Assembly (NCBI GenBank): GCA_964408735.1
Contig: CAYPAX010000007.1
Span: 1,450 to 65,449, forward strand
Reading direction: 5' to 3'
DNA from: an uncultured Rhodospirillaceae bacterium
GTDB taxonomy: Bacteria > Pseudomonadota > Alphaproteobacteria > UBA7887
Length of the DNA stretch: 64,000 nt
In this document: positions 22,594 through 37,589 of the stretch, in pieces
How the letters are laid out: every line of letters begins with the position of its first letter
How positions within the stretch are numbered: position 1 is the first letter of the stretch
The notes under the pieces: generated by a model
Told to the model about the DNA's origin: nothing
The model's database searches: none
The model's input: the letters and a program-made list of their open reading frames with translations, nothing else
Made by a program: the position numbers and the translations under genes

Positions 22594-23217
22594 CTATTCC
22601 GCAGCCTGTGCCGCTTGCGGCGACAAGGGCAGGCCGACCCCGATCATGCTGTCTCGGGTGACGAGCTTGGCGAGATCCTCCTCGCTCCAGCCCTCGGTGC
22701 CGTCGGGGCGCTTCGGCAGCACCATGTAACGCATGTCGGCGGTGGAATCGTGCACCCGCAGCTCGATGTCGTCGGCCATGCTGACGCCGAACTCAGCCAG
22801 CACCGTGCGTGGCTCGCGCACCACGCGCTTGCGGTATTCCTGCGCCTTGTACCAGTCCGGCGGCAGGCCGAGGACGGTGCGCGGATAACAGGAGCAGAGC
22901 GTGCAGACGAAAAGATTGTGCACATCGTCGGTGTTCTCGACCACCACCAGCAGGGTGCCGTCGAGAGTGAGGCCGAGTTCCTCCGCCGCGGCGCTGCCGT
23001 CAGCGAGCATGCGGGCGCGATAGGCCTCGTCGGTCCAGGCGCGGGCGACCATGCGGGCGCCGTCGGCCGGGCTGCGGGCGTCCATGCGTTCCATCTGGCG
23101 GGCGATGCGATCGTCGGTCAGCACGCCATGCTCGACCAGCAATTCGCGCACCGCGACCGCGAGGTGGCGGTAATAGGGGTCGTGCACACCGTGGCGGTGG
23201 TTGACTTCGTCGCTCAT
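22594..23217 (-). CDS. Nitrile hydratase-family alpha subunit, cobalt type
   Basis: The metal-binding motif VCTLCSCYP is followed by a region that aligns with NHase alpha (VVREPR, WSEE-L-LVTRDSMIGV). 207 aa from MSDEVNH. ATGA overlap with the upstream gene. Confidence 0.8.
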   Translation of the reverse strand: MSDEVNHRHGVHDPYYRHLAVAVRELLVEHGVLTDDRIARQMERMDARSPADGARMVARAWTDEAYRARMLADGSAAAEELGLTLDGTLLVVVENTDDVHNLFVCTLCSCYPRTVLGLPPDWYKAQEYRKRVVREPRTVLAEFGVSMADDIELRVHDSTADMRYMVLPKRPDGTEGWSEEDLAKLVTRDSMIGVGLPLSPQAAQAAE

Positions 23218-23513
23218 GACGCCTGCTCCAGCCAATGTTCGTAGATCTCGACCTCGACGCAGTCCTGGGCCGGGCCGGTATAGTCGGGCCACAGATGGGA
23301 TTGCGGAAAACGCACCCGGTAGAGGGTCTGCTTGGGCAGGCCTTCCTCGCCATAGGCGAGCGCTTCGGGATTGCGAAAGGTGCCGCAGATGCGTTCGATC
23401 TCGCCGCTCTTGCCGCGCACATACCAGGGCGTGCGCAAATGGGGTTTGCGCGGCTCGCTGGGCGGATCGCGGAAGGCGACATGCACCTTATCGCCGACAG
23501 CGAAGCGGCTCAT
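23214..23513 (-). CDS. Nitrile hydratase beta subunit, C-terminal half, as a separate polypeptide (ToyL/ScnA-like)
   Basis: 99 aa. FxVGDKVxV...PRYVRGKxG...LYxVRF matches the C-terminal SH3-like domain of NHase beta. ATGA overlaps at both ends. Confidence 0.7.
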   Translation of the reverse strand: MSRFAVGDKVHVAFRDPPSEPRKPHLRTPWYVRGKSGEIERICGTFRNPEALAYGEEGLPKQTLYRVRFPQSHLWPDYTGPAQDCVEVEIYEHWLEQAS

Positions 23514-23818
23514 GCCTCTCCCTCCCGCGCCGCCACCTCGGCCACCCGCGCCTGTACCTCGGTCTCGTCGAGCACGCCCTTCTCGATCAGAATGGCGGCG
23601 ATGGAAGCAATCCAGCGCTCGTAATAGCTCAAGGACGAGTAGGCATCCGGCGCCAACGCCTCGATGCCGCGGCGCAGCTCGTCGACGCGCATGATCTTCT
23701 CTTCCTGGATCAGCAACGACATCAGCGCATCGATACGCTTCTCCCAGACGTCGTAGTCGTGCTCGCCAAGCTCCACCGGCCCCGCTGGCTGGCCGCCCAT
23801 ATCATGATGACTGCGCAT
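23510..23818 (-). CDS. Nitrile hydratase beta subunit, N-terminal half, as a separate polypeptide (ToyK/ScnB-like)
   Basis: 103 aa from MRSHHDMGG, which matches the HDLGG start of NHase beta. Other matches are WEKRIDAL and YYERWI. GGGAGG RBS. Confidence 0.7.
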   Translation of the reverse strand: MRSHHDMGGQPAGPVELGEHDYDVWEKRIDALMSLLIQEEKIMRVDELRRGIEALAPDAYSSLSYYERWIASIAAILIEKGVLDETEVQARVAEVAAREGEA

Positions 23819-24064: not shown

Positions 24065-24949
24065 TCAGCCCAGCCTTGCCACGAAGTCCGCCACCGCTTC
24101 GCCTATCTGGTCGGGGGAGTCTTCCTGGATGAAGTGGAGGCCGGGGACGGTGACCTCGGTCTGGTTGGGCCAGGCGCGGCAGAACTCGCGCTGCTCGCCG
24201 ACCAGAATGCTGCCGGGATCGGCGTTGATGAAGAGCTTGGGCAGGTCGCTTGACGCCAGCCATTGCGAATAGCCCTCGGCGATGGCGACCACGTCCGCCG
24301 GCTCGCCGTCGATGGGGATCTGGCGCGGCCAGGTCAGGGTCGGGCGGCGGGATTCGCCGGGCTCCGTGAAGCGCTTGCGGTAATGCGCCATCTCGGCGTC
24401 GCTCAAGCCCCGGGCCACGGCGCGGGGCAATAGCACCTCGACGAAAAGGTTCTTGGTCAGCACCATGTCGTCCCCCGCCGGCGAGCGCAGGGCCTGGAAG
24501 AACTCGCGCGCGCCGTCGGGCCAGTCGGCCCACGACACGGGTCGTACCAGCGCTTCCATATAGGCGATGCCGGCAACCCGGTCCTGGTTGCGGTGGGCCC
24601 AGTGGAAGCCGAGGGCGGAGCCCCAGTCGTGCACCACGAAGACCGCGTCGCGCAGATCCATGGCCGCGAGCCAGGCGTCGAGATAGCGGGCGTGGGTGGC
24701 GAAGGTGTAGTCGCCATCCGACGAGACGCCGGAGTCCCCCATGCCGATGAGGTCCGGTGCCAGGCAACGATTGCCCTCGGCCAAATGCGGGATGATATTG
24801 CGCCAGAGATAAGACGAGGTCGGGTTGCCGTGCAGGAACACCACGGGACGGCCATCGGCCTTGCCGGTGTCCACATAGGCGATCTCGGAATCGAGCACGG
24901 CGGCGCGCCGGCGCGGGTGGGGGTCGGCGGCGGATGGCGTGGCTGTCAT
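24065..24949 (-). CDS. Haloalkane dehalogenase-family alpha/beta hydrolase
   Basis: FLHGNPTSSYLWRNIIPHL and HDWGSALG are hallmarks of DhaA-type haloalkane dehalogenases. 294 aa from MTATPSAAD. Confidence 0.75.
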   Translation of the reverse strand: MTATPSAADPHPRRRAAVLDSEIAYVDTGKADGRPVVFLHGNPTSSYLWRNIIPHLAEGNRCLAPDLIGMGDSGVSSDGDYTFATHARYLDAWLAAMDLRDAVFVVHDWGSALGFHWAHRNQDRVAGIAYMEALVRPVSWADWPDGAREFFQALRSPAGDDMVLTKNLFVEVLLPRAVARGLSDAEMAHYRKRFTEPGESRRPTLTWPRQIPIDGEPADVVAIAEGYSQWLASSDLPKLFINADPGSILVGEQREFCRAWPNQTEVTVPGLHFIQEDSPDQIGEAVADFVARLG

Positions 24950-27319: not shown

Positions 27320-27451
27320 CGCCGAATCTGCCGCGCTGTGACTGTTCCGAATTCGAAACTTCTCCATATCGGAGATGCTTGAGATGAATCGTCAACCTAT
27401 AACTGATGTGATACCGTAACGAATTCGCGTGGGCAAACGGGGGGCTCGGCG

Positions 27452-30439
27452 ATGAGGAAACTGCTCGACGAGCTTGACTTTCACTATGGCGAATCGGCAC
27501 TGACCGCTATGGCGTCCCGTTTGGCGGCCGCGCAAGAGCATAGGTTCCAAGCGGGCGACTCCAGGACGCAGGAGGTGACCCGAACGACCGCGCTCGTCGT
27601 GCTTGCCGAGATGGACGACAGGGTGGCCGAGGCCTTGGCCGCGGGGAAACTCTCTCTTGAGGCATTCCGCGAGGAGGTGGCGCTGAGCGGGGCGATCGCG
27701 TCGGTTTCGGCGACGGATGTCGACCTGCATGCGAATTTTGGCACTGCCATCAGGGGCTACGCCGCACGGTATCCGGACAAGCGTGACCTCACGCCGCACG
27801 CGCTAGCGCTCGCCATTGCCGAGATGGCCGAGGCGGACGCAGGCGGCTTGATCCCCGACCGGCTGCGCGAGGCAGGCGCGGACATCTCCGCGATCGTGAT
27901 GGCCCTGCGCGCGATTCATGTTGCCCCGACGACCCTGGATGTTCCGCGCCCGACGGTCTGGCTGCTGCACTACGATGTCACCGATCAACTGGTCGGCTTG
28001 ATCTTGGGCAACGATCTTGAAACTACGGTTGCTTGGATAAGCAAGAAAATCGTCGACGGGATCGAGCCTAGCGATCCGGTGATATATTGGCGCAACACGA
28101 GCGCTGACGAGAAGCGTAGCGGCGGCCTCGTGGGAACGGGCCGGTTCGTGAGCGGGCGGCACAGCGAAGCCGAGGAACCTCCGGATCCCGGCGAGGGCAG
28201 GTCTGCCCGGAAGGCCTATGCGACCGAGATCATCGAGCGGTTTCCGGATGACGTAATACCCGAGGATGACATTATCACCGAGACAGGGCTCGATATGCCC
28301 TGGCGCCTTGGCTCGATACTCGAAGTGCCGAACGACGTGGCCCTGAAGATCGACGACATGTTGACCTCACGGGGTCACGTCAGCCTGTTTCCCCGGCTGG
28401 CGACGGAGATCACGTTCGTCGATGATTCGCCGAAGGCCGACGAGGACTATCTGCAGCGCGCCGAGCATGCCTTCGTGTTGGCTGCGCGGCTCAATCGCAT
28501 CTGGGAGGAGGCCTGCGGCATTGGCGAGCCGCCGCCGCAGGAGCCGGGCACGGTAGCAAGCGCGAGCTGGACCGGCATCGGCGCGGAAGAGGCCACGCCG
28601 GCCGCGGAAAACAGCTTCGTGGTTCACATAGACGCGCCGTGGGGAGGCGGCAAGACGACCTTCGCCAACTACCTGACCCGCATACTCAATCCATTTCGCC
28701 ATGGCACCGGCGAGCCCAGTTGGCTCGGTCGGCTACACCTTGATGACGCTGAGGCCTGGCCGCGTGAGTTCCGCAAGCCCTGGTGCGTGGTCGAGTTCAA
28801 CGCCTGGGAGCACGAGCATATCGACCCGCCCTGGTGGGTGTTCTATCAGGCCGTCAGGCGGCAATGCTTCGAAGCGGTCAGGACCGAGCACTTCCGCAAC
28901 ACCGCCTTCGACTGGTCCGCGGAGAACGGCTGGCGCACGGCCGTGGTGCGTCATCTCGACTGGCTGGCATTGTGGCTCAGGGAACTCGGCTGGCGGATAT
29001 TCACGCCACGTGTTGGCCTTCTCGGCATGACCTTCGCCCTGACCGTGGTGCTGGCGATCATTCTCGCCCAGCATGACCTGTTCGACCCGGACAGCGTGCT
29101 GTCGGGAGAAGAGGCCGACATAGTCGCGGCAACGCCCGCGCCTGGGTTGGAAACACAAGGCGCAGGCGATACCGCAGATGCGGCGGTGGACGGTGCGGGA
29201 AAGCCGGTCGCCGATGAAGCGGGCAACGGGCAGTCGGAAGGCACGCTGTCGCAGATAATCGTCACCTCGGTGCTCGTGCTGCTCGGCGGCGCCACCGGGA
29301 TATGGTCGGTCGTGGCCGCCTTCACGCAGTCGCTGCTGCCCGGAACACCGAGCTCGGCGCGCAACTACTCGCTAGGCTCGGGCGATCCGCTCGACCGCTT
29401 TCGCATCCACTTCGATCGCATGATGCGACAGCTCGGGCGCCCGATCGTCGTCATTGTCGATGACATCGACCGCTGCAATCCGCAGTTCGTCGTGGAATTG
29501 TTGCGTGGCATGCAAATCATCCTCAAGAGCCCGCGCGTGGTATATCTGCTGCTCGGCGACAGGAACTGGATCGAGCAAAGCTTTTCCGAGGTGCACAAGG
29601 CCATGAAGGATCTGAGCGTTGGTCCCGAACACAGCCTGGGCGGCCGTTTCGTTGAAAAGTCGATCCAGCTGTCCTTGATACTGCCCGGCATATCGTTCGA
29701 AGATAAGTCGGAATATGTGCGGCGAATTCTCAACGTCGATGGCAATGGCGCTGCCGCGCCGGCCGGGACCGAGTCGGCGAATCGGCTGGCCGATATCCAT
29801 GAGGATCTGGAGGCCATCTCCGCGGTCAAGGATCCGGTGCGGCGCGACGCCGGCGCGAGCACGCTGCGCCGCTCGATAGAGAGCGATGCGGCGCTCGACG
29901 ACGATCAGAGGAAGGCCGCCCAAAGGGAGATCGACGTTACGCTTGCCATGCGCTCCGCCGTCGACGAATCCCTGCAGCAGGCGACGCAGCACCGCCTGGT
30001 ACCCATCGCCGGTGTGCTACCGGCGAACCCGCGGCAGATCAAGCGTATCATCAACGCCGTCGCCTTCCTGCAGGAGATCGCCCGCATCGCCGAAGGCATA
30101 CAGCCCGGCAGCAAGGAATGGTGCAACATGGCGCTTTGGGTGGTTGTGATGACCGAATGGCCGCGCAGCTGGGCAAAAATGTCGCATTATCCCCGGCTTA
30201 TCGATCGCCTGCGCAACCCGAGCCTCCAAGACACCGACGGCTTGCCGGAACAAAAGCTCATGGCAAGCTGGCTCAAGACGATCAGGGAGGATGTCGGCCT
30301 GGTAGCGCTGCTCGACTTCAGCTCGAAGAACCCGCAATGGACCGAAGCGCGGCTCGAGGCCGATGACATACGGCGCTTCCGCAATTTCATGCCGCCGCCG
30401 CCGGAGATCGACGAAACGCCACCGCCCGAGCAGAAGTAA
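27452..30439 (+). CDS. KAP-family P-loop NTPase with a ~390-aa uncharacterised N-terminal extension and TM helices inserted into the NTPase domain
   Basis: Walker A APWGGGKT is followed by the FNAW motif. Hydrophobic helices (VGLLGMTFALTVVLAIILA, IIVTSVLVLLGGATGIWSVVAAF) sit between Walker A and Walker B (IVVIVDDIDRC). The KAP signature NPRQIKRIINAVAF is present. 995 aa. Confidence 0.8.
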   Translation: MRKLLDELDFHYGESALTAMASRLAAAQEHRFQAGDSRTQEVTRTTALVVLAEMDDRVAEALAAGKLSLEAFREEVALSGAIASVSATDVDLHANFGTAIRGYAARYPDKRDLTPHALALAIAEMAEADAGGLIPDRLREAGADISAIVMALRAIHVAPTTLDVPRPTVWLLHYDVTDQLVGLILGNDLETTVAWISKKIVDGIEPSDPVIYWRNTSADEKRSGGLVGTGRFVSGRHSEAEEPPDPGEGRSARKAYATEIIERFPDDVIPEDDIITETGLDMPWRLGSILEVPNDVALKIDDMLTSRGHVSLFPRLATEITFVDDSPKADEDYLQRAEHAFVLAARLNRIWEEACGIGEPPPQEPGTVASASWTGIGAEEATPAAENSFVVHIDAPWGGGKTTFANYLTRILNPFRHGTGEPSWLGRLHLDDAEAWPREFRKPWCVVEFNAWEHEHIDPPWWVFYQAVRRQCFEAVRTEHFRNTAFDWSAENGWRTAVVRHLDWLALWLRELGWRIFTPRVGLLGMTFALTVVLAIILAQHDLFDPDSVLSGEEADIVAATPAPGLETQGAGDTADAAVDGAGKPVADEAGNGQSEGTLSQIIVTSVLVLLGGATGIWSVVAAFTQSLLPGTPSSARNYSLGSGDPLDRFRIHFDRMMRQLGRPIVVIVDDIDRCNPQFVVELLRGMQIILKSPRVVYLLLGDRNWIEQSFSEVHKAMKDLSVGPEHSLGGRFVEKSIQLSLILPGISFEDKSEYVRRILNVDGNGAAAPAGTESANRLADIHEDLEAISAVKDPVRRDAGASTLRRSIESDAALDDDQRKAAQREIDVTLAMRSAVDESLQQATQHRLVPIAGVLPANPRQIKRIINAVAFLQEIARIAEGIQPGSKEWCNMALWVVVMTEWPRSWAKMSHYPRLIDRLRNPSLQDTDGLPEQKLMASWLKTIREDVGLVALLDFSSKNPQWTEARLEADDIRRFRNFMPPPPEIDETPPPEQK

Positions 30440-31006: not shown

Positions 31007-31864
31007 ATGCGCTACGCCTTTATCGGGCTCGGGCAGATGGGGGCACGCATGGCAGCGCGGCTGGCAGGCGCCGGGCACGCCTTGGTGGGCTTCGACGCCG
31101 CAGGCACCGCCGAGCGGCTGCCGGATGGCGCGGCAGCCGCCGACTCCGTGGCGGATGCGCTTGCCCAGGCCGATACGGCGCTGCTGTCCCTGCCCGACGG
31201 CCCCGTGGTCGAGGCGGTGGCAGGCGAGATCGCCGCGAGCGGCTGGAAAGGCTGCGTCTTCGACCACTCGACCATCGGCCCGGAGGCGGCGGTGCGCGTG
31301 CACGGGCGCCTGGCAGGCGAGGGCGTCACGTATCTGGATGCGCCCGTCTCGGGCGGCACCCGCGGCGCGGCCCAGGGCACGCTGGCGATGATGGTCTCGG
31401 GGGAGCGCGGCCTGTATGACCAGGCCGAGCCGGCGCTTAATGTCATGGCCAAGAACCTCTTCTACATCGGCCCGGCGCCGGGCCAGGGCCAGACCATGAA
31501 GCTGCTCAACAACCTGCTCTCGGGCGTTGCCATGGTGGCGACCAGCGAGGCCGTGCTGTTCGGCGAGGCGCACGGGCTCGACCCCGAAGTCATGGTCTCC
31601 GTCCTCAACGTCTCCAGCGGCCAGAACACGGCCACCTCCGACAAGTTCCCCACCCGCATACTGAACGGCCGCTACGACGCCGGCTTCACCATCGACCTCT
31701 TGAGCAAGGACGTATCGCTGTACCTGGCGGAAGCCGACCGTATCGGTGCCCGCGAAAAGGTAGCCCGGCAAGTGGGCGAGACCCTCGCCGCCATGCGCGA
31801 GGCCATGCCGGGCGCGGATTTCACGAGACTCTATCCGTATCTGAAGGAGCTGGGCGAGGAGTAG
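31007..31864 (+). CDS. NAD(P)-dependent 3-hydroxyisobutyrate dehydrogenase-family oxidoreductase
   Basis: FIGLGQMG Rossmann motif and the beta-hydroxyacid dehydrogenase fold. GAGGAG RBS. Confidence 0.8.
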   Translation: MRYAFIGLGQMGARMAARLAGAGHALVGFDAAGTAERLPDGAAAADSVADALAQADTALLSLPDGPVVEAVAGEIAASGWKGCVFDHSTIGPEAAVRVHGRLAGEGVTYLDAPVSGGTRGAAQGTLAMMVSGERGLYDQAEPALNVMAKNLFYIGPAPGQGQTMKLLNNLLSGVAMVATSEAVLFGEAHGLDPEVMVSVLNVSSGQNTATSDKFPTRILNGRYDAGFTIDLLSKDVSLYLAEADRIGAREKVARQVGETLAAMREAMPGADFTRLYPYLKELGEE

Positions 31865-32033: not shown

Positions 32034-32315
32034 ATGTCTGACATCAAGGTCGAGATCGACTTCGACGCGCTCGACGAGGCGGCGGTGCGCGCCGCCTTGT
32101 CGAGCTCCGATCCCAACCATCCGGTGGCTGTCGAGATCGCGAAGCGCATCACCCGCATCACCCAGAGCATCGCCCTCCAGGCCAGGGGCGGCCGTGTCTG
32201 GACCCTGCGTCTGGCGGCGCCGAGAAGTGTCGTCGACCGGGCCGCCACAGACATCGCGCTCGAAGCGGTGAGGACCGAGACCGGCGCCGAGCTCCAAGTC
32301 AGATACCGAGCATGA
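32034..32315 (+). CDS. Hypothetical protein (93 aa)
   Basis: No family recognised. Intergenic ORF with a good codon-usage appearance. Confidence 0.3.
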   Translation: MSDIKVEIDFDALDEAAVRAALSSSDPNHPVAVEIAKRITRITQSIALQARGGRVWTLRLAAPRSVVDRAATDIALEAVRTETGAELQVRYRA

Positions 32316-32628: not shown

Positions 32629-35600
32629 CTATTGCGCGAACGCCTCCGGCCCCGGATCGGGCGGGATATCCCAGCCACACGCCGTGAGGCCGGACGTGAG
32701 GGCATCGATCATCGGGCGGGTGCCCGCTTTCTGCCAGAAATATACCTCCTGCCAATAGGCATCACGGAATCCTGGATATGCCGACAGCGCCGTATCCAGG
32801 GCAATCTTTCCGCGTTCCAGATCATCGCTGGCGCAGTGGGCCGCGGCCAGAAACACGTGGGTCAGGAAGTACCAGTTCATCTGGTTCGCCTCCAACCGGG
32901 AGATCGCCGCACCAAATTCGCCGCGTGCCATGTGAACCTTGGCCATGTTCCAGTTCATCCAGCCCGGGTATTTCGGGTTCAGGATCGTGAGCCTGTCCAT
33001 GATCTCGACGGTTCGCTCATAGGCCCCGACGTTGGAAAACACTTCCGCCGCCCAGCCGATGATATCCGAGTTGTTCGGCTCCAGGCGCAAGGCCTCCTCG
33101 GCCTCGCGAATGGCGCGTTGCGGGTCGTCTGTCAGGTAGAGGGCTTGGGCGTATATGACGTGACCAATGCCGCTGTTCGGATCTAGGAAGACGGCTCTTT
33201 CAAGTGTCGAAAGCGCTCTGTCGAGGGAGGAGTCCGGCAGGGGGTTGAGCCCGACGGCGATCTCCAGGAGGTAGAGATTGCCGAGATAGGCCAGCGCCTC
33301 AGCATAATCCGGTTCGCTCTCTATGACGCCTTCCAGACAATCCCGTGCCACACTATGCGTTTCCGGCCCGACCTGGCGGACGAACTCATGAGCGCGCAGA
33401 ATGCAGTCGTAGGAAGAAAAATATTTCGGTGCCTGCCTATCGCCTCGCGCGGACTGGGCGAGGGAGATCGCGCCGTGCACGTCGCCGATTCGGCCCGCCA
33501 CGGTTTCCGTAATCTCGTCCTGAATCGAGAATATGTTCGCCGCATCGAGTGCGCGGTCAAAGGTCTCGGCCCATAGGTGCGTGCCCTCTTCAGCCGCCAG
33601 CAGCTGCGCCGTCACCCGCACCGTGTCGCCGCTGCGGCGGATGCTGCCCTCGACCACGTAGTCGGCGCCGAGCTTCTCGGAGATGGCCGGGATATCCACG
33701 GCTTCTCCCTTGAACTGGAACGTGGTATTGCGGCCCAGCACGAGGATGTCCGGATACTGCGCCAGCCGCGTAATAATGTCCTCGGTGATGCCGTCGGCGA
33801 AGTATTCCTGGCTAGGGTCCCCCGAAAGATTGTCGAAGGGGAGGACAGCAATGACGGGCCGTCGAGCCTCGGCATCAGGCGAATGTTCGGGCACGCCGAG
33901 GTCGCGTAACGTCGCCAGATAGCCTGCAACGATCGCTCGGTCCTTATAGGCCCAAATGCGCTCCGTGTCGTTTCGCACTACCTCGATGGACAAGGCAGGA
34001 TCCTTGTTGCGGAGACGCGCAATGGCAGCCATGGCGTCGGCCTCGCGACTAGCTCTGGCGAGTGCGATGGGCAGGATATACTGGACTTCGGGATCGTCAG
34101 GCACGAGCGAGCTGTAACGCTCCAGCCAATGTGCGCCCTCGACGGGGTGTCCCGAGTTGAGAAGGATTGTCCCCTTGTCCAGGAGATACCAATGGGGATG
34201 CACCGGGCTGAGGCGAATGGCCTCATCAAGCTCTGTCATGGCGAGCTCGTAGCTGCCCGACGTATACAGCATCAGGGCATAGTGCGCGTGTGCGAGCGAG
34301 CCGCCGGGATCAAGCTCGACGCCCCGGCGCGCGGCGGCGATCGCAGCCTCGTGCTCATGCAAGTCGCGGTGAATCATTACCTGCAGGCCGTAAGCGGCGG
34401 CCAGGGTATCGTCCGCCGCGAGCGCCTTTTCGACATGCGCTTTGGCCTGCAACAGGCCGTCCGCATGATCTTCCCAGCGGTAGCGGTAAGTATATTCCAA
34501 CGCCCATCCCAGATACGCCCAACCCAAGGCAAATCCGGGGTCGTCGGCTACGGCGGAGGCGAATAACGACTGTGCACGCGCATTGTCAGCCTGGTTGGCC
34601 TTTCGCAGCAGCGCGACACCTTGCTGCCATTTTTCCCAAGCTTCGATGTTGTTCGTGCCACCACGCCAGCGCAGCGCTTGTGGCCCTTCGGTAAGCTCGA
34701 CTTGCAGCGCACTCACCACTTCCAGGGTAATATCGTCCTGCAGCGCGAATATGTCGTCGAGCGGGCGGTCGTAGCGCTCGGCCCAGACATGGCCGCCGCT
34801 CGCCACCTCGATCAGTTGCATGACAATGCGAATCTGATCTCCGGCAACCTGCACGCTGCCCTCCAGCACATGTTCGACACCGAGCTGGCGGGCGACCTCG
34901 CTCATGTCCGCTTCCGCGTCTCGGTACTGCAGCGTCGAATAGCGCGCCGGCACGAACAGCCGCCGGGCCTGCGACAGACTGGCTATGATGTTTTCGTGCA
35001 GACCGTCGGCGAGAAAAGCGTATTCGTCGGAACCGCTCAAGTCGGCGAACGGCAGCACCGCCACGGACGCCGTGTCGGGATCGACAAGCACCGGGTCGCC
35101 GGAGGGCGTGGCCATCTCCGATGGCTCCGGAATGCCGACCAGCCACCAGATCGTCGCGCCGGCAATGATGACGGCCGTGAGTGCAGCCGCGATGCCAATG
35201 ACAGGGCGGCGCTTGCGGCGTAGGGGTGCCGGCTCGGACGCCTCCGCCGTCACCCGATAGGCCGGTACCGGCCGCGGGATATTCTTCACCTCGTGCTCGC
35301 CAATGAAGGCGAAGCCGAGTGCCAGCCGATCACGCACTTCTTCATAGACCTTGCCGGAGACATTGGCCGTGCCCGGCTCGGCCAGCCCCTCCAGCCGCGC
35401 CGCGACATTCACGCCATCGCCATAGATCGTCCCGTCCTCTTCCTCGATAACGTCGCCCTGGTTGACGCCGATGCGGAACAGCATGCGCCGCGCCTCGGCC
35501 ACCGGCGCGTTGATTTCCGCCAGCTTCTCCTGCACTTCCACGGCGCATTGCACGGCCTCGACGACGCTGCGGAACTCGGCCAGCACGCTGTCTCCGGCGG

Positions 35601-35787
35601 TATCGATGAGCCGGCCCGAATGTGCCTCGATGCTCTCGCGGAAAACCGCTCGCGCCTGCTGCAGCGCCGTCACGGTGGCCTGATCGTCGTCGGCCATCAG
35701 CCGCGAGTAGCCCGCCACGTCGGCCGCGAGGATGGCCGCCAGCTTGCGGCTGCCGGTGGGCGGGGGCTCATGCGTGTCGGAGGGCAT
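32629..35787 (-). CDS. Class III adenylate/guanylate cyclase (CHD), then a TM helix, then two copies of a periplasmic-type domain plus TPR repeats
   Basis: N-terminal CHD motifs (LAAILAADVAGYSRLM, TAGDSVLAEF, GVNVAARLE). TM helix IGIAAALTAVIIAGATIWWLV. Repeated LPFxxLSGD...YFADG modules and TPR-like helices. 1052 aa. Confidence 0.8.
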   Translation of the reverse strand: MPSDTHEPPPTGSRKLAAILAADVAGYSRLMADDDQATVTALQQARAVFRESIEAHSGRLIDTAGDSVLAEFRSVVEAVQCAVEVQEKLAEINAPVAEARRMLFRIGVNQGDVIEEEDGTIYGDGVNVAARLEGLAEPGTANVSGKVYEEVRDRLALGFAFIGEHEVKNIPRPVPAYRVTAEASEPAPLRRKRRPVIGIAAALTAVIIAGATIWWLVGIPEPSEMATPSGDPVLVDPDTASVAVLPFADLSGSDEYAFLADGLHENIIASLSQARRLFVPARYSTLQYRDAEADMSEVARQLGVEHVLEGSVQVAGDQIRIVMQLIEVASGGHVWAERYDRPLDDIFALQDDITLEVVSALQVELTEGPQALRWRGGTNNIEAWEKWQQGVALLRKANQADNARAQSLFASAVADDPGFALGWAYLGWALEYTYRYRWEDHADGLLQAKAHVEKALAADDTLAAAYGLQVMIHRDLHEHEAAIAAARRGVELDPGGSLAHAHYALMLYTSGSYELAMTELDEAIRLSPVHPHWYLLDKGTILLNSGHPVEGAHWLERYSSLVPDDPEVQYILPIALARASREADAMAAIARLRNKDPALSIEVVRNDTERIWAYKDRAIVAGYLATLRDLGVPEHSPDAEARRPVIAVLPFDNLSGDPSQEYFADGITEDIITRLAQYPDILVLGRNTTFQFKGEAVDIPAISEKLGADYVVEGSIRRSGDTVRVTAQLLAAEEGTHLWAETFDRALDAANIFSIQDEITETVAGRIGDVHGAISLAQSARGDRQAPKYFSSYDCILRAHEFVRQVGPETHSVARDCLEGVIESEPDYAEALAYLGNLYLLEIAVGLNPLPDSSLDRALSTLERAVFLDPNSGIGHVIYAQALYLTDDPQRAIREAEEALRLEPNNSDIIGWAAEVFSNVGAYERTVEIMDRLTILNPKYPGWMNWNMAKVHMARGEFGAAISRLEANQMNWYFLTHVFLAAAHCASDDLERGKIALDTALSAYPGFRDAYWQEVYFWQKAGTRPMIDALTSGLTACGWDIPPDPGPEAFAQ

Positions 35788-37589
35788 TATTCGGTCTGCT
35801 CAGGGATATTAAGGCCGGCTTTGCGCAGGCCGTCAATCCACGCCTTGTATCGGGGCCGTAGCGCTTCGGGGTTCAGCGGGGAAAGCGCCGCCAAGGCCAC
35901 CTCAGGGGTGAAGTCCGGTTTAACTTCTAACAGCCCTTTGAGCGCAATCTTGGCTTCTGCGGGTTTACCAAGGTGTGCCAACGCCGATGCCAAATGCGCG
36001 TGAGGCCAAAATGGGGTTGCTGGGAATCGGACCGCGCGCCGCGCATCCTCCACTGTCGATTCGTAGTCTCCTAATAAAAAATGAGCAAGAGCGCGTAAGG
36101 TATAGAATGCCCATGCAAATGGGTCGCGCGGGCTTAAGCGGATGGCGGTGCTATACTCGGCGATGGCATCGTCATAACGCTCACTTCGCGCAAGCGCCAT
36201 GCCGAGCCCATTATGCGCAAATGCCGAGCTGGGATTAAGGTCAATGGCCGTACGTAGCTCTGCGATCGCCGCATCGTATTCGCCTCGTGAGACGTGCACC
36301 CTACCAAGCGCGAGATGAGCCATTGCGTCTTTGTCGTCCAGCGCCACGGCCCTGTTCGCGAACCGCTGTGCATCGTCCACATCCTCAAGAGGTGTATCTG
36401 AGTAGGCGTGCAGAACCTGGAGGAACAGCGTGAACCCAAGCGCCGCGAATGCTTGGGCAAAATTCGGATCTTGGTCGCTGGCAAGTTGGAAAAATCGACG
36501 CGCCTCCGCCATGTCCTCGGCATTGATTTGCCAAAGATGCCACATACCGCGCTGGTAGCACTCCCACGCATCGAGATTTTCCGGCCGCTTGCGACGGGCG
36601 CGTTCGCTTTCGAATTCGCCGACTTCCACTTGCAGGGCTGCGACCAGAGTTTCAGTGATCTCGTCCTGCAACGCGAAGATATCCGACAGGTCGCGGTCGT
36701 ATCGCTCAGCCCATATATGGTTGCCTGTGAGAGCATCGATCAATTGCGCCGTGATGCGCACCCGTTCGCCACCTCTACGGACGCTGCCCTCGACAACGTA
36801 TCGAACCTTGAGGTCATGGCCGACCTGTTTCACATCGACAGCTGTGTTCTTGTAGGTGAAGGAAGAATTGCGGGCCGAAACCTGGAGCCAGCGCAGGCGC
36901 GACAGCTCTGTGATCAGGTCTTCCGCTATGCCATCGGCAAAGTACTCTTGGTCGGCATCGCCGCTTAGGTTATTAAACGCTAACACAGCTATTGATGGCT
37001 TCTCAGCTAGCGACTGTGCAGCGTTCGGCGCAGGCGACATATCACGCGTGTTCAAAATGATCTGATAGGCACGCACCGAGCGGGCAATGTTCTTGAACTC
37101 GTGTTCACCCACATCGGCGAACGCAATATTCAGGCGCCCACTCACAGCACCGTGTATCATGTCCGATACGGTGATCCCGCCCGGCTCGCTCAGGCCTTCC
37201 AGCCGGGCCGCGACATTTACGCCATCGCCATAAACCGTCCCGTCGGCCTTCTCGTGGATGTCGCCAAGGTGGATGCCAATACGGAAGTGCATCTGGCGGG
37301 CCTCGGGAACATCCGCATTGAGCGCCGCCAAGCCTTCCTGGATCGCCAGAGAAGCCCGCAACGCCCCATTCGTGGTCTCGAAGACGGCCAGCACGCTGTC
37401 GCCCGCCGTGTCCACCACCCGGCCGTGGTTGCCCTCGACGTGTTTCGTGAAGACCGCCCGCGCGCGGTCCAGCGCCGCGATGGTCCCCTTCTCGTCGTCG
37501 GCCATCAGCCGCGAATAGCCGACCGCATCCGCCGCCAGGATCGCCGCGACGCGCTCGGTTATGCCGTCCTGTCCGTCGTCCTCAGCCAC
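35787..37589 (-). CDS. Class III adenylate/guanylate cyclase (CHD) with TPR repeats, paralogue of the downstream gene
   Basis: The same CHD motifs plus a single LAFNNLSGD module and TPRs. Its stop overlaps the next gene's start by 1 nt (TAATG). Confidence 0.8.
   Translation of the reverse strand: MAEDDGQDGITERVAAILAADAVGYSRLMADDEKGTIAALDRARAVFTKHVEGNHGRVVDTAGDSVLAVFETTNGALRASLAIQEGLAALNADVPEARQMHFRIGIHLGDIHEKADGTVYGDGVNVAARLEGLSEPGGITVSDMIHGAVSGRLNIAFADVGEHEFKNIARSVRAYQIILNTRDMSPAPNAAQSLAEKPSIAVLAFNNLSGDADQEYFADGIAEDLITELSRLRWLQVSARNSSFTYKNTAVDVKQVGHDLKVRYVVEGSVRRGGERVRITAQLIDALTGNHIWAERYDRDLSDIFALQDEITETLVAALQVEVGEFESERARRKRPENLDAWECYQRGMWHLWQINAEDMAEARRFFQLASDQDPNFAQAFAALGFTLFLQVLHAYSDTPLEDVDDAQRFANRAVALDDKDAMAHLALGRVHVSRGEYDAAIAELRTAIDLNPSSAFAHNGLGMALARSERYDDAIAEYSTAIRLSPRDPFAWAFYTLRALAHFLLGDYESTVEDARRAVRFPATPFWPHAHLASALAHLGKPAEAKIALKGLLEVKPDFTPEVALAALSPLNPEALRPRYKAWIDGLRKAGLNIPEQTE

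Follow-up and report, generated by a model that had tools for sequence, protein, structure and literature searches.

What might a bacterium use a membrane-inserted KAP NTPase for, when the gene stands alone and its protein carries some 390 residues ahead of the nucleotide-binding site? The question is raised by one gene in a 64,000-nucleotide stretch of contig CAYPAX010000007.1 from an uncultured Rhodospirillaceae bacterium (assembly GCA_964408735.1); we call that whole stretch the window. KAP NTPases were reportedly proposed as phage-defence proteins in 2004. A first-pass annotation of the window had taken this gene for a solo KAP NTPase with a novel N-terminal domain and a candidate role in defence or abortive infection. 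We found that the N-terminal region is divisible into a predicted Clp_N-like module and a predicted EVE domain, and that the same core is combined with immune effector domains in related proteins. On balance, we favor the view that the gene encodes a self-contained, inner-membrane-anchored conflict protein, directed against phages or mobile elements, in which the EVE domain senses a modified base.

The gene is a single complete open reading frame (ORF), as called on the window, and encodes 995 residues. Pfam KAP_NTPase (PF07693) scores 89.2 bits on the protein, in two stretches (E = 3.9e-25; the gathering cutoff is 20). Both Walker motifs, A and B (hhhhDDxDR), are intact and are invariant or near-invariant across 62 relatives, and an FNAW motif lies at residues 449-452. 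With the KAP signature also located, the family assignment made at first pass and every motif quoted for it are borne out.

The first-pass annotation had described about 390 N-terminal and about 150 C-terminal residues as matching nothing recognizable. Searched with the window protein alone, residues 1-390 and 850-995 indeed gave no Pfam match, and we therefore took the domain boundaries from the starts of homologue alignments. Placed in this way, they do not outline one novel N-terminal domain: residues 1-160 form a Clp_N-like module (module A), residues 166-315 an EVE module (module B), and residues 317-390 the start of the KAP core. Homology to relatives starts at residue 316 or 322 and runs to residue 981 in every one. 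Because conservation extends that far in all relatives, the C-terminal 150 residues or so are part of the KAP subfamily core, not an extra module. A variable low-complexity linker joins the conserved helix that opens the core to Walker A, and the last 14 residues of the protein form a proline/glutamate-rich tail.

What is module B? Its modelled fold is an EVE/PUA-like beta-barrel, and we assign it, on the model, as a predicted EVE domain (PF01878, PUA-like superfamily). The Pfam EVE profile matches 11 of 22 homologous module-B segments (best E, 1.8e-5) and 4 of 34 in a wider set (best E, 6e-7). Residues W170, W195, D208, Y212 and G228-T229-G230 are invariant (W5, W30, D43, Y47 and G63-T64-G65 in module numbering); W48 of the module is near-invariant, and an aromatic or hydrophobic residue is kept two positions ahead of the invariant T93. 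EVE domains bind modified bases that they flip out, and act as specificity modules of modification-dependent restriction (PMC7641849, PMC7897488). In VcaM4I, the flipped 5-methylcytosine or 5-hydroxymethylcytosine is held in a hydrophobic pocket of P24, W82 and Y130 (PMC7897488). The conserved aromatics of module B are compatible with such an arrangement and suggest a putative flipped-base pocket. The module is a separate unit, since it is preceded by other N-termini in homologues P0011-P0014 and in Roseibium proteins.

Module A has, in a confident structure model, the double four-helix-repeat fold of Clp/Hsp100 N-domains, and we regard it as Clp_N-like on the strength of that model. Clp/Hsp100 N-domains dock adaptors and substrates. 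The Clp_N sequence profile (PF02861) matched none of 14 module-A members at E ≤ 10, and a module-A profile searched against PDB sequences returned noise only (E > 0.2). One member gave a weak match to Death (E = 0.0013); this candidate was rejected because the model matches Clp N-domains and nothing Death-like. Like module B, module A is a separate unit, being present without EVE in P0015 and P0024.

Two hydrophobic helices are inserted in the NTPase domain and sit between Walker A and Walker B, as the definition of the KAP family requires. The first-pass annotation had counted two to three such helices; a hydropathy scan shows two and no third. Basic residues stand just ahead of the first transmembrane (TM) helix, and the loop that follows it is acidic. 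From this charge distribution and the positive-inside rule, we infer that the N-terminal modules and both halves of the NTPase are cytoplasmic and that the loop is periplasmic. At 53-57 residues, the loop is the longest in the family (the median is 12 residues, and some relatives lack a loop), and this long acidic segment is a lineage-specific expansion.

How widespread is the architecture? A search of 5.8 billion proteins returned about 10 full-length homologues, at 42-46% identity, and about 50 partial relatives. When residues 1-318 were searched exhaustively as a profile against 1.84 billion cluster representatives, 156 proteins matched at E ≤ 0.001, and about 12 of these have both modules. 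The long proteins with module A only were KAP NTPases in 49 of 49 cases and form a more divergent KAP branch with the Walker A sequence GPWGSGKS; single examples with module A only also bear TIR, DUF4062, Macro, Metallophos or FGE-sulfatase domains. Proteins with only the EVE subtype were likewise mostly KAP NTPases (29 of 34), some of them with TIR, ThsB_TIR, HTH or PG-binding domains. The N-termini of 49 close relatives of the core included caspase (5 proteins), TIR_2 (3 proteins), DUF4062, NB-ARC/nSTAND, SCP2 and TPR.

Individual proteins make the pattern plain. The window protein runs Clp_N, EVE, core. In P0014 a TIR domain (residues 8-120) and in P0011 a DUF4062 domain (residues 10-91) precedes EVE and core; P0012 and a Rhizobium plasmid copy have a short N-terminus before EVE and core. 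EVE is absent from P0016, in which a caspase domain (residues 8-223) precedes the core, and from P0015, in which Clp_N does so. Because these coordinates place different domains in the same slot, EVE is an optional module between the N-terminal slot and the core, and Clp_N occupies the slot that death or effector domains fill in the paralogues. Shuffling of TIR and caspase domains on a constant NTPase has been described by Kaur, Burroughs, Iyer and Aravind as a hallmark of nucleoside triphosphate (NTP)-dependent conflict systems, in which a KAP ATPase can stand in for STAND NTPases against invaders (PMC8195603), and ClpN repeats turn up occasionally in conflict systems (PMC7159879). The EVE survey of Bell, Wolf and Koonin makes no mention of fusions to KAP, P-loop or NTPase domains (PMC7641849). 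The literature that we searched, with the founding KAP paper represented by papers citing it and domain-architecture databases outside its scope, makes no mention of KAP together with EVE, PUA, YTH or Clp N-domains. Within that literature, the EVE-KAP fusion and the KAP-specific Clp_N-like module are undescribed.

How might such a protein work? At the cytoplasmic face of the membrane, the EVE domain would bind a modified base flipped out of a nucleic acid, most plausibly hypermodified or methylated invader DNA, though possibly modified RNA. Binding would switch the KAP NTPase to an NTP-dependent active, probably oligomeric, state. The output would then pass through the N-terminal slot, the membrane hairpin or both: the Clp_N-like module would recruit or trap a host or phage protein, and the hairpin could perturb ions or the membrane, as reported for PifA and Tmn. 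In the end, the infected cell or the invader would be arrested. These parts are not equally secure. That the protein serves conflict or defence we think probable; that its EVE domain senses a modified base we place a little short of an even chance; and any one specific output is doubtful. The sensing step is moderately supported, and the output step is the weakest.

The defence role proposed at first pass is strengthened, short of proof for the window protein, because the same KAP core stands behind TIR, caspase, DUF4062 and STAND-type modules and because KAP fusions described in 2026 protect with Walker B dependence. Abortive infection, which the annotation had also raised, is not implied: one of those fusions was tested at high and low multiplicity of infection (MOI) and was not abortive (PMC13552941).

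Perhaps the protein has no immune function at all? It could be a resident membrane NTPase whose EVE domain reads modified DNA or RNA of the cell itself and whose Clp_N module docks a host protein, and which regulates or scaffolds a housekeeping or stress process. The locus lends this alternative support. The first-pass annotation had judged the gene and about 130 bp upstream markedly less GC-rich than the flanks and had proposed horizontal acquisition as a lower-GC cassette. We observed a GC content of 0.636 for the gene, against a window-gene mean of 0.671 (z = -1.21, with 5 of 43 genes lower), and a third-position GC content (GC3) of 0.789, against 0.828 (z = -0.89). Its codon-usage distance is 0.080, where other long genes range from 0.059 to 0.128. 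Only the upstream spacer is clearly AT-richer, as is usual for intergenic DNA, and only that part of the compositional claim stands.

The flanking genes named at first pass, an AMP-binding ligase and a MaoC dehydratase, were confirmed, and the neighbourhood is metabolic: no integrase, insertion sequence (IS) or transposase, repeat boundary or defence gene flanks the KAP gene. At least 24 marine-metagenome contigs encode an identical protein, and on each the gene lies between the same ligase and dehydratase; every contig with the identical flanking ligase also carries the KAP gene. With an identity of at least 99.66% over 8.4 kb, the latter contigs represent one near-clonal population and hold no usable polymorphism; in that sampled population the gene is fixed. 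With the ligase as bait, genome and metagenome contigs yielded relatives only at 67% identity or below, none with the ligase-MaoC adjacency and hence none close enough to reveal an empty site. With composition within the normal spread and the gene in all ligase-matched contigs, the window locus does not look like a mobile cassette, and we do not retain the proposal of horizontal acquisition.

A similar picture comes from Roseibium. R. aggregatum, R. porphyridii and R. album have an EVE-KAP relative at the same position, in the gene order minCDE, GGDEF, one or two variable genes, KAP, prfC, DUF2585, and the gene is apparently resident and vertically inherited there. A conserved syntenic position across the whole genus, with ordinary GC and codon usage, had been named beforehand as grounds for rejecting the first-pass proposal. 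That objection is touched by the synteny in three species, but the gene diverges far faster than its neighbours: between these species, identity is 53-60% for the whole KAP protein, compared with 92-94% for prfC and 84-90% for DUF2585. Within the protein it rises from the N-terminal module (32-40%) through EVE (45-60%) to the core (71-74%). Such a gradient would be expected if the accessory modules face a changing target, which is supportive, not decisive, because the adjacent CHASE4-GGDEF sensor is equally divergent (48-55%).

The Roseibium proteins (L010, 8001-11594; L183, 6001-9627; L184, 6001-9603) also have an extra N-terminal region of about 300-330 residues, without a Pfam match, which is their fastest-evolving part. 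The genes just upstream of KAP differ between the species (MgtC; choline kinase and Npun_R2479; a methyltransferase and MFS), which suggests a variable spot beside a stable KAP gene.

Several of these results weigh against a defence function and suit a cellular one: ordinary composition and codon usage, surroundings free of mobile and defence genes, presence in every sampled population contig, and Roseibium synteny beside prfC and near minCDE. The fast divergence of the CHASE4-GGDEF neighbour shows, moreover, that rapid evolution is not specific to conflict. EVE domains have roles outside defence, including RNA- and tRNA-related ones, and for many EVE proteins a function in cellular RNA or translation contexts is predicted (PMC7641849). 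In eukaryotes, KAP proteins such as Kidins220 serve as signalling scaffolds. Further points against our interpretation lie in the protein itself. The Pfam EVE profile had no match to the window protein's own segment at E ≤ 10; the module-B profile found only noise among PDB sequences (E > 0.2), with no residue-level match to a solved EVE; and the protein has no recognizable enzymatic effector. Viral contigs and phage genomes yielded no family member, which lends mobility no support and is neutral as to defence.

Against a housekeeping role stands the distribution of the family, which is rare and patchy (156 of 1.84 billion representatives, about 12 with both modules) and occurs in wholly different contexts in different genera. 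Its core is paired with TIR, caspase, DUF4062, Macro and ThsB_TIR, domains of cell-death and immune effectors, not of housekeeping proteins, and its accessory modules diverge fast. At the family level, contexts are variable and include plasmids and IS elements: two conjugative megaplasmids of R. leguminosarum carry EVE-core relatives immediately next to IS transposases, and frameshifted or truncated copies occur by IS elements. We therefore consider a purely cellular function unlikely, if worth keeping in view.

Two of the disrupted copies deserve description. On the R. leguminosarum Vaf10 plasmid NZ_CP016290.1 (L172, 1-13454), the EVE-KAP relative is frameshifted; it has an IS481 transposase and a small RelA/SpoT-domain gene on one side and a PG-binding gene, an HxsABC radical-SAM system and a PLD-like gene on the other. 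These surroundings, on a conjugative plasmid, resemble a conflict island, and the RelA/SpoT gene may be a former N-terminal module of the KAP protein. P0021 (677 residues; L171, 8001-11044) is followed by a 302-residue ORF and looks like a disrupted Clp_N-EVE-KAP copy; around it are a DDE transposase, a glycoside hydrolase 19/PG-binding gene and genes for lipases similar to Tle1 of the type VI secretion system (T6SS).

Does the gene depend on a partner? In nine contexts (the window, four metagenomic homologues, three Roseibium and one Rhizobium plasmid), no neighbouring gene is conserved. Hence the KAP protein is a self-contained unit, and the solo status claimed at first pass holds.

If the protein is immune, the roles of its two modules might be reversed. 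Clp_N would then sense a phage protein or peptide, and EVE would tether the protein to host nucleic acid or hold it auto-inhibited. Clp N-domains are dedicated protein and peptide binders, and the known membrane P-loop defence NTPases sense phage proteins (T7 gp1.2 and gp10 by PifA, T2 RIIB by Tmn). An EVE domain can also restrain its partner, since in VcaM4I EVE and the linker block the catalytic domain. Some proteins join Clp_N to the core and have no EVE (P0015 and the 49 KAP proteins with module A only), and thus the family can work without EVE. The slot occupied by Clp_N, however, is the one in which paralogues carry TIR, caspase and DUF4062, which points to an output rather than an input role. 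There are also proteins in which EVE and the core have almost no module ahead of them (P0012 and the Rhizobium plasmid copy), and in every characterized defence context EVE is the specificity, that is, the sensing, module. We regard the reversed assignment as improbable, and as somewhat less probable than a cellular role. That the gene is an inactive relic or mis-assembled chimera is very improbable indeed: relatives do decay (the frameshifted NZ_CP016290 copy and the truncated P0021 beside a transposase), but here at least 15 contigs, drawn from several independent projects, carry an unbroken ORF of the same or nearly the same sequence, no catalytic motif or family-invariant residue is missing, and about 10 full-length homologues at 42-46% identity share the architecture.

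Returning to a membrane-anchored conflict protein with an EVE sensor, we can sketch a more specific form of it. This would be a nuclease-free, modification-dependent immunity, in which a membrane-tethered EVE inspects nucleic acid, possibly incoming phage DNA, and either the KAP switch collapses membrane or ion homeostasis or Clp_N hands the target to Clp proteolysis. We offer it as a speculation that is unlikely to hold in full. If true, it would join the logic of type IV restriction to cell arrest in place of DNA cleavage, and a KAP defence NTPase would for the first time have a defined class of ligand. More generally, the EVE-KAP subfamily offers a KAP NTPase with a recognizable input domain and thus a handle on what KAP defence NTPases sense. 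The question becomes testable because the ligands of the EVE fold, flipped modified bases, are well understood as a class. The natural swaps of modules on one core (Clp_N, TIR, caspase and DUF4062, with or without EVE) could in turn separate the roles of sensor, switch and effector.

Table 1. Features of the KAP locus, in window coordinates
Feature	Residues	Position	Strand	Remarks
Upstream intergenic spacer		27320..27451	+	132 bp; GC 0.53
Complete ORF	1-995	27452..30439	+	Clp_N-like module (predicted), EVE (predicted), KAP NTPase with inserted TM hairpin
Module A	1-160	27452..27931	+	Predicted all-alpha Clp/Hsp100 N-domain-like fold (protein-, peptide- or adaptor-binding type)
Module B	166-315	27947..28396	+	Predicted EVE/PUA-like beta-barrel, fold of modified-base readers
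KAP core start	317-352	28400..28507	+	Helix TxFxxDxxExExDxLxRxxLAxxLAxRLxxIW; conserved columns
Walker A/P-loop	395-402	28634..28657	+	APWGGGKT; invariant in 62 relatives
TM helix 1	521-543	29012..29080	+	Inside NTPase domain; Kyte-Doolittle 19-residue peak 2.55; hydrophobic in 61 relatives
Inter-TM loop	544-600	29081..29251	+	Acidic, low-complexity; 1 basic and 12 acidic residues; predicted periplasmic
TM helix 2	601-625	29252..29326	+	Hydropathy scan; hydrophobic in 61 relatives
Walker B	665-675	29444..29476	+	IVVIVDDIDRC; conserved in relatives
KAP signature	859-872	30026..30067	+	NPRQIKRIINAVAF
C-terminal helical region	877-981	30080..30394	+	Kept across the KAP subfamily

The element as first delimited began at 27330 and so took in 122 bp of intergenic DNA 5' of the ORF. 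A G-rich stretch 7-13 nucleotides 5' of the ATG is a candidate ribosome-binding site. The 132-bp spacer contains no sigma-70 consensus promoter, a promoter and terminator scan around the gene gave no signal exceeding chance, and Rfam and tRNA scans of the whole window had no matches.

Other genes of the window showed features of their own. Two class III adenylate/guanylate cyclase genes with fused TPR/BTAD regions lie in tandem at 32629-35787 and 35787-37589 on the reverse strand; the second has the lowest GC nearby (0.595, with GC3 0.671) and is more atypical than the KAP gene. Between a NAD-binding dehydrogenase gene and the cyclase genes, a 93-residue ORF without a Pfam match (32034-32315, forward strand) is called in every population contig. 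At 23214-23818 on the reverse strand, adjoining NHase_alpha, the nitrile hydratase beta gene is split in all contigs into overlapping NHase_beta_C (99 residues) and NHase_beta_N (96-102 residues) frames, representing either a genuinely split subunit or a conserved frameshift. In the near-clonal population, 14 of 43 variant positions fall within 80 bp of the NAD_binding_2 gene (31095-31172), and contig L005 has a 22-bp deletion in an alpha/beta-hydrolase gene (24072-24093). The variant cluster and the deletion could be recombination patches or assembly artefacts.

Does the protein belong to a defence system that is already known? The PADLOC PifA model matches only the Walker B region (positions 168-255 of 720, 49 bits), and the best match to PDC-S20, a PADLOC candidate system, reaches 52 bits and is limited to positions 168-235 of a 464-position model. 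Because both matches are confined to the core and are sub-threshold, we rejected membership in either. PifA, the F-plasmid protein behind T7 exclusion, is reported to cause membrane depolarization and leakage and is described as lacking TM helices (PMC13001434). It shares with the window protein the KAP core and a single-protein design and acts at the membrane; in contrast, it has neither EVE nor Clp_N and senses gp1.2 and gp10, and the window protein has two TM helices. QatA shares a KAP-type ATPase core, to judge from weak model matches, but differs in its accessory domains; its model NF041923 scores 52.3 bits against an equivalog cutoff of 600, and there are no QatB, QatC or QatD neighbours. 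Membership in QatA was rejected on the same grounds as for PifA and PDC-S20.

Tmn, of the YobI family, has two TM helices within its P-loop domain; on sensing a phage protein, the decamer burns ATP and exports Mg2+, and plasmolysis is part of the effect (PMC13001434). Like the window gene, it is a single gene with a TM pair in the P-loop domain, and its NTPase/membrane part is the effector. It belongs to a different P-loop family, however, lacks accessory domains and has a sensor for a phage protein. The window protein itself has no match to YobI-ATPase at E ≤ 1, and only 2 distant relatives match weakly. The STAND/NLR-like NTPases (Avs, bNACHT; Kaur et al. 2020/2021) have the same tripartite logic and draw on the same pool of swappable effectors (TIR, caspase). 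They belong to another NTPase clade and sense through C-terminal repeats, whereas the window protein is membrane-inserted and has a predicted EVE sensor.

The commonest EVE defence architecture is EVE-McrB (PMC7641849). In EVE-McrB and McrBC type IV restriction the motor is an AAA+ GTPase; in the window protein it is a membrane-inserted KAP P-loop domain. KAP is the sole NTPase family matched, and no McrC or nuclease gene lies near the KAP gene, so that cleavage of DNA through a known nuclease cannot be the output. The KAP fusions of 2026, EF_KAP and three gut-metagenome proteins, are single-gene systems that protect E. faecalis from phage and need Walker B and an accessory region (PMC13552941). 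Like the window protein, they are stand-alone KAP NTPases with TM helices that join an NTPase switch and variable modules in one polypeptide. They come from Firmicutes and have C-terminal regions without an assigned function or fold, whereas the window protein is proteobacterial, with N-terminal modules of recognizable fold (Clp_N and EVE); the likeness lies in the KAP core and the overall logic. EVE-McrB is the nearest known system in its sensing logic, and the 2026 KAP fusions are the nearest in overall design.

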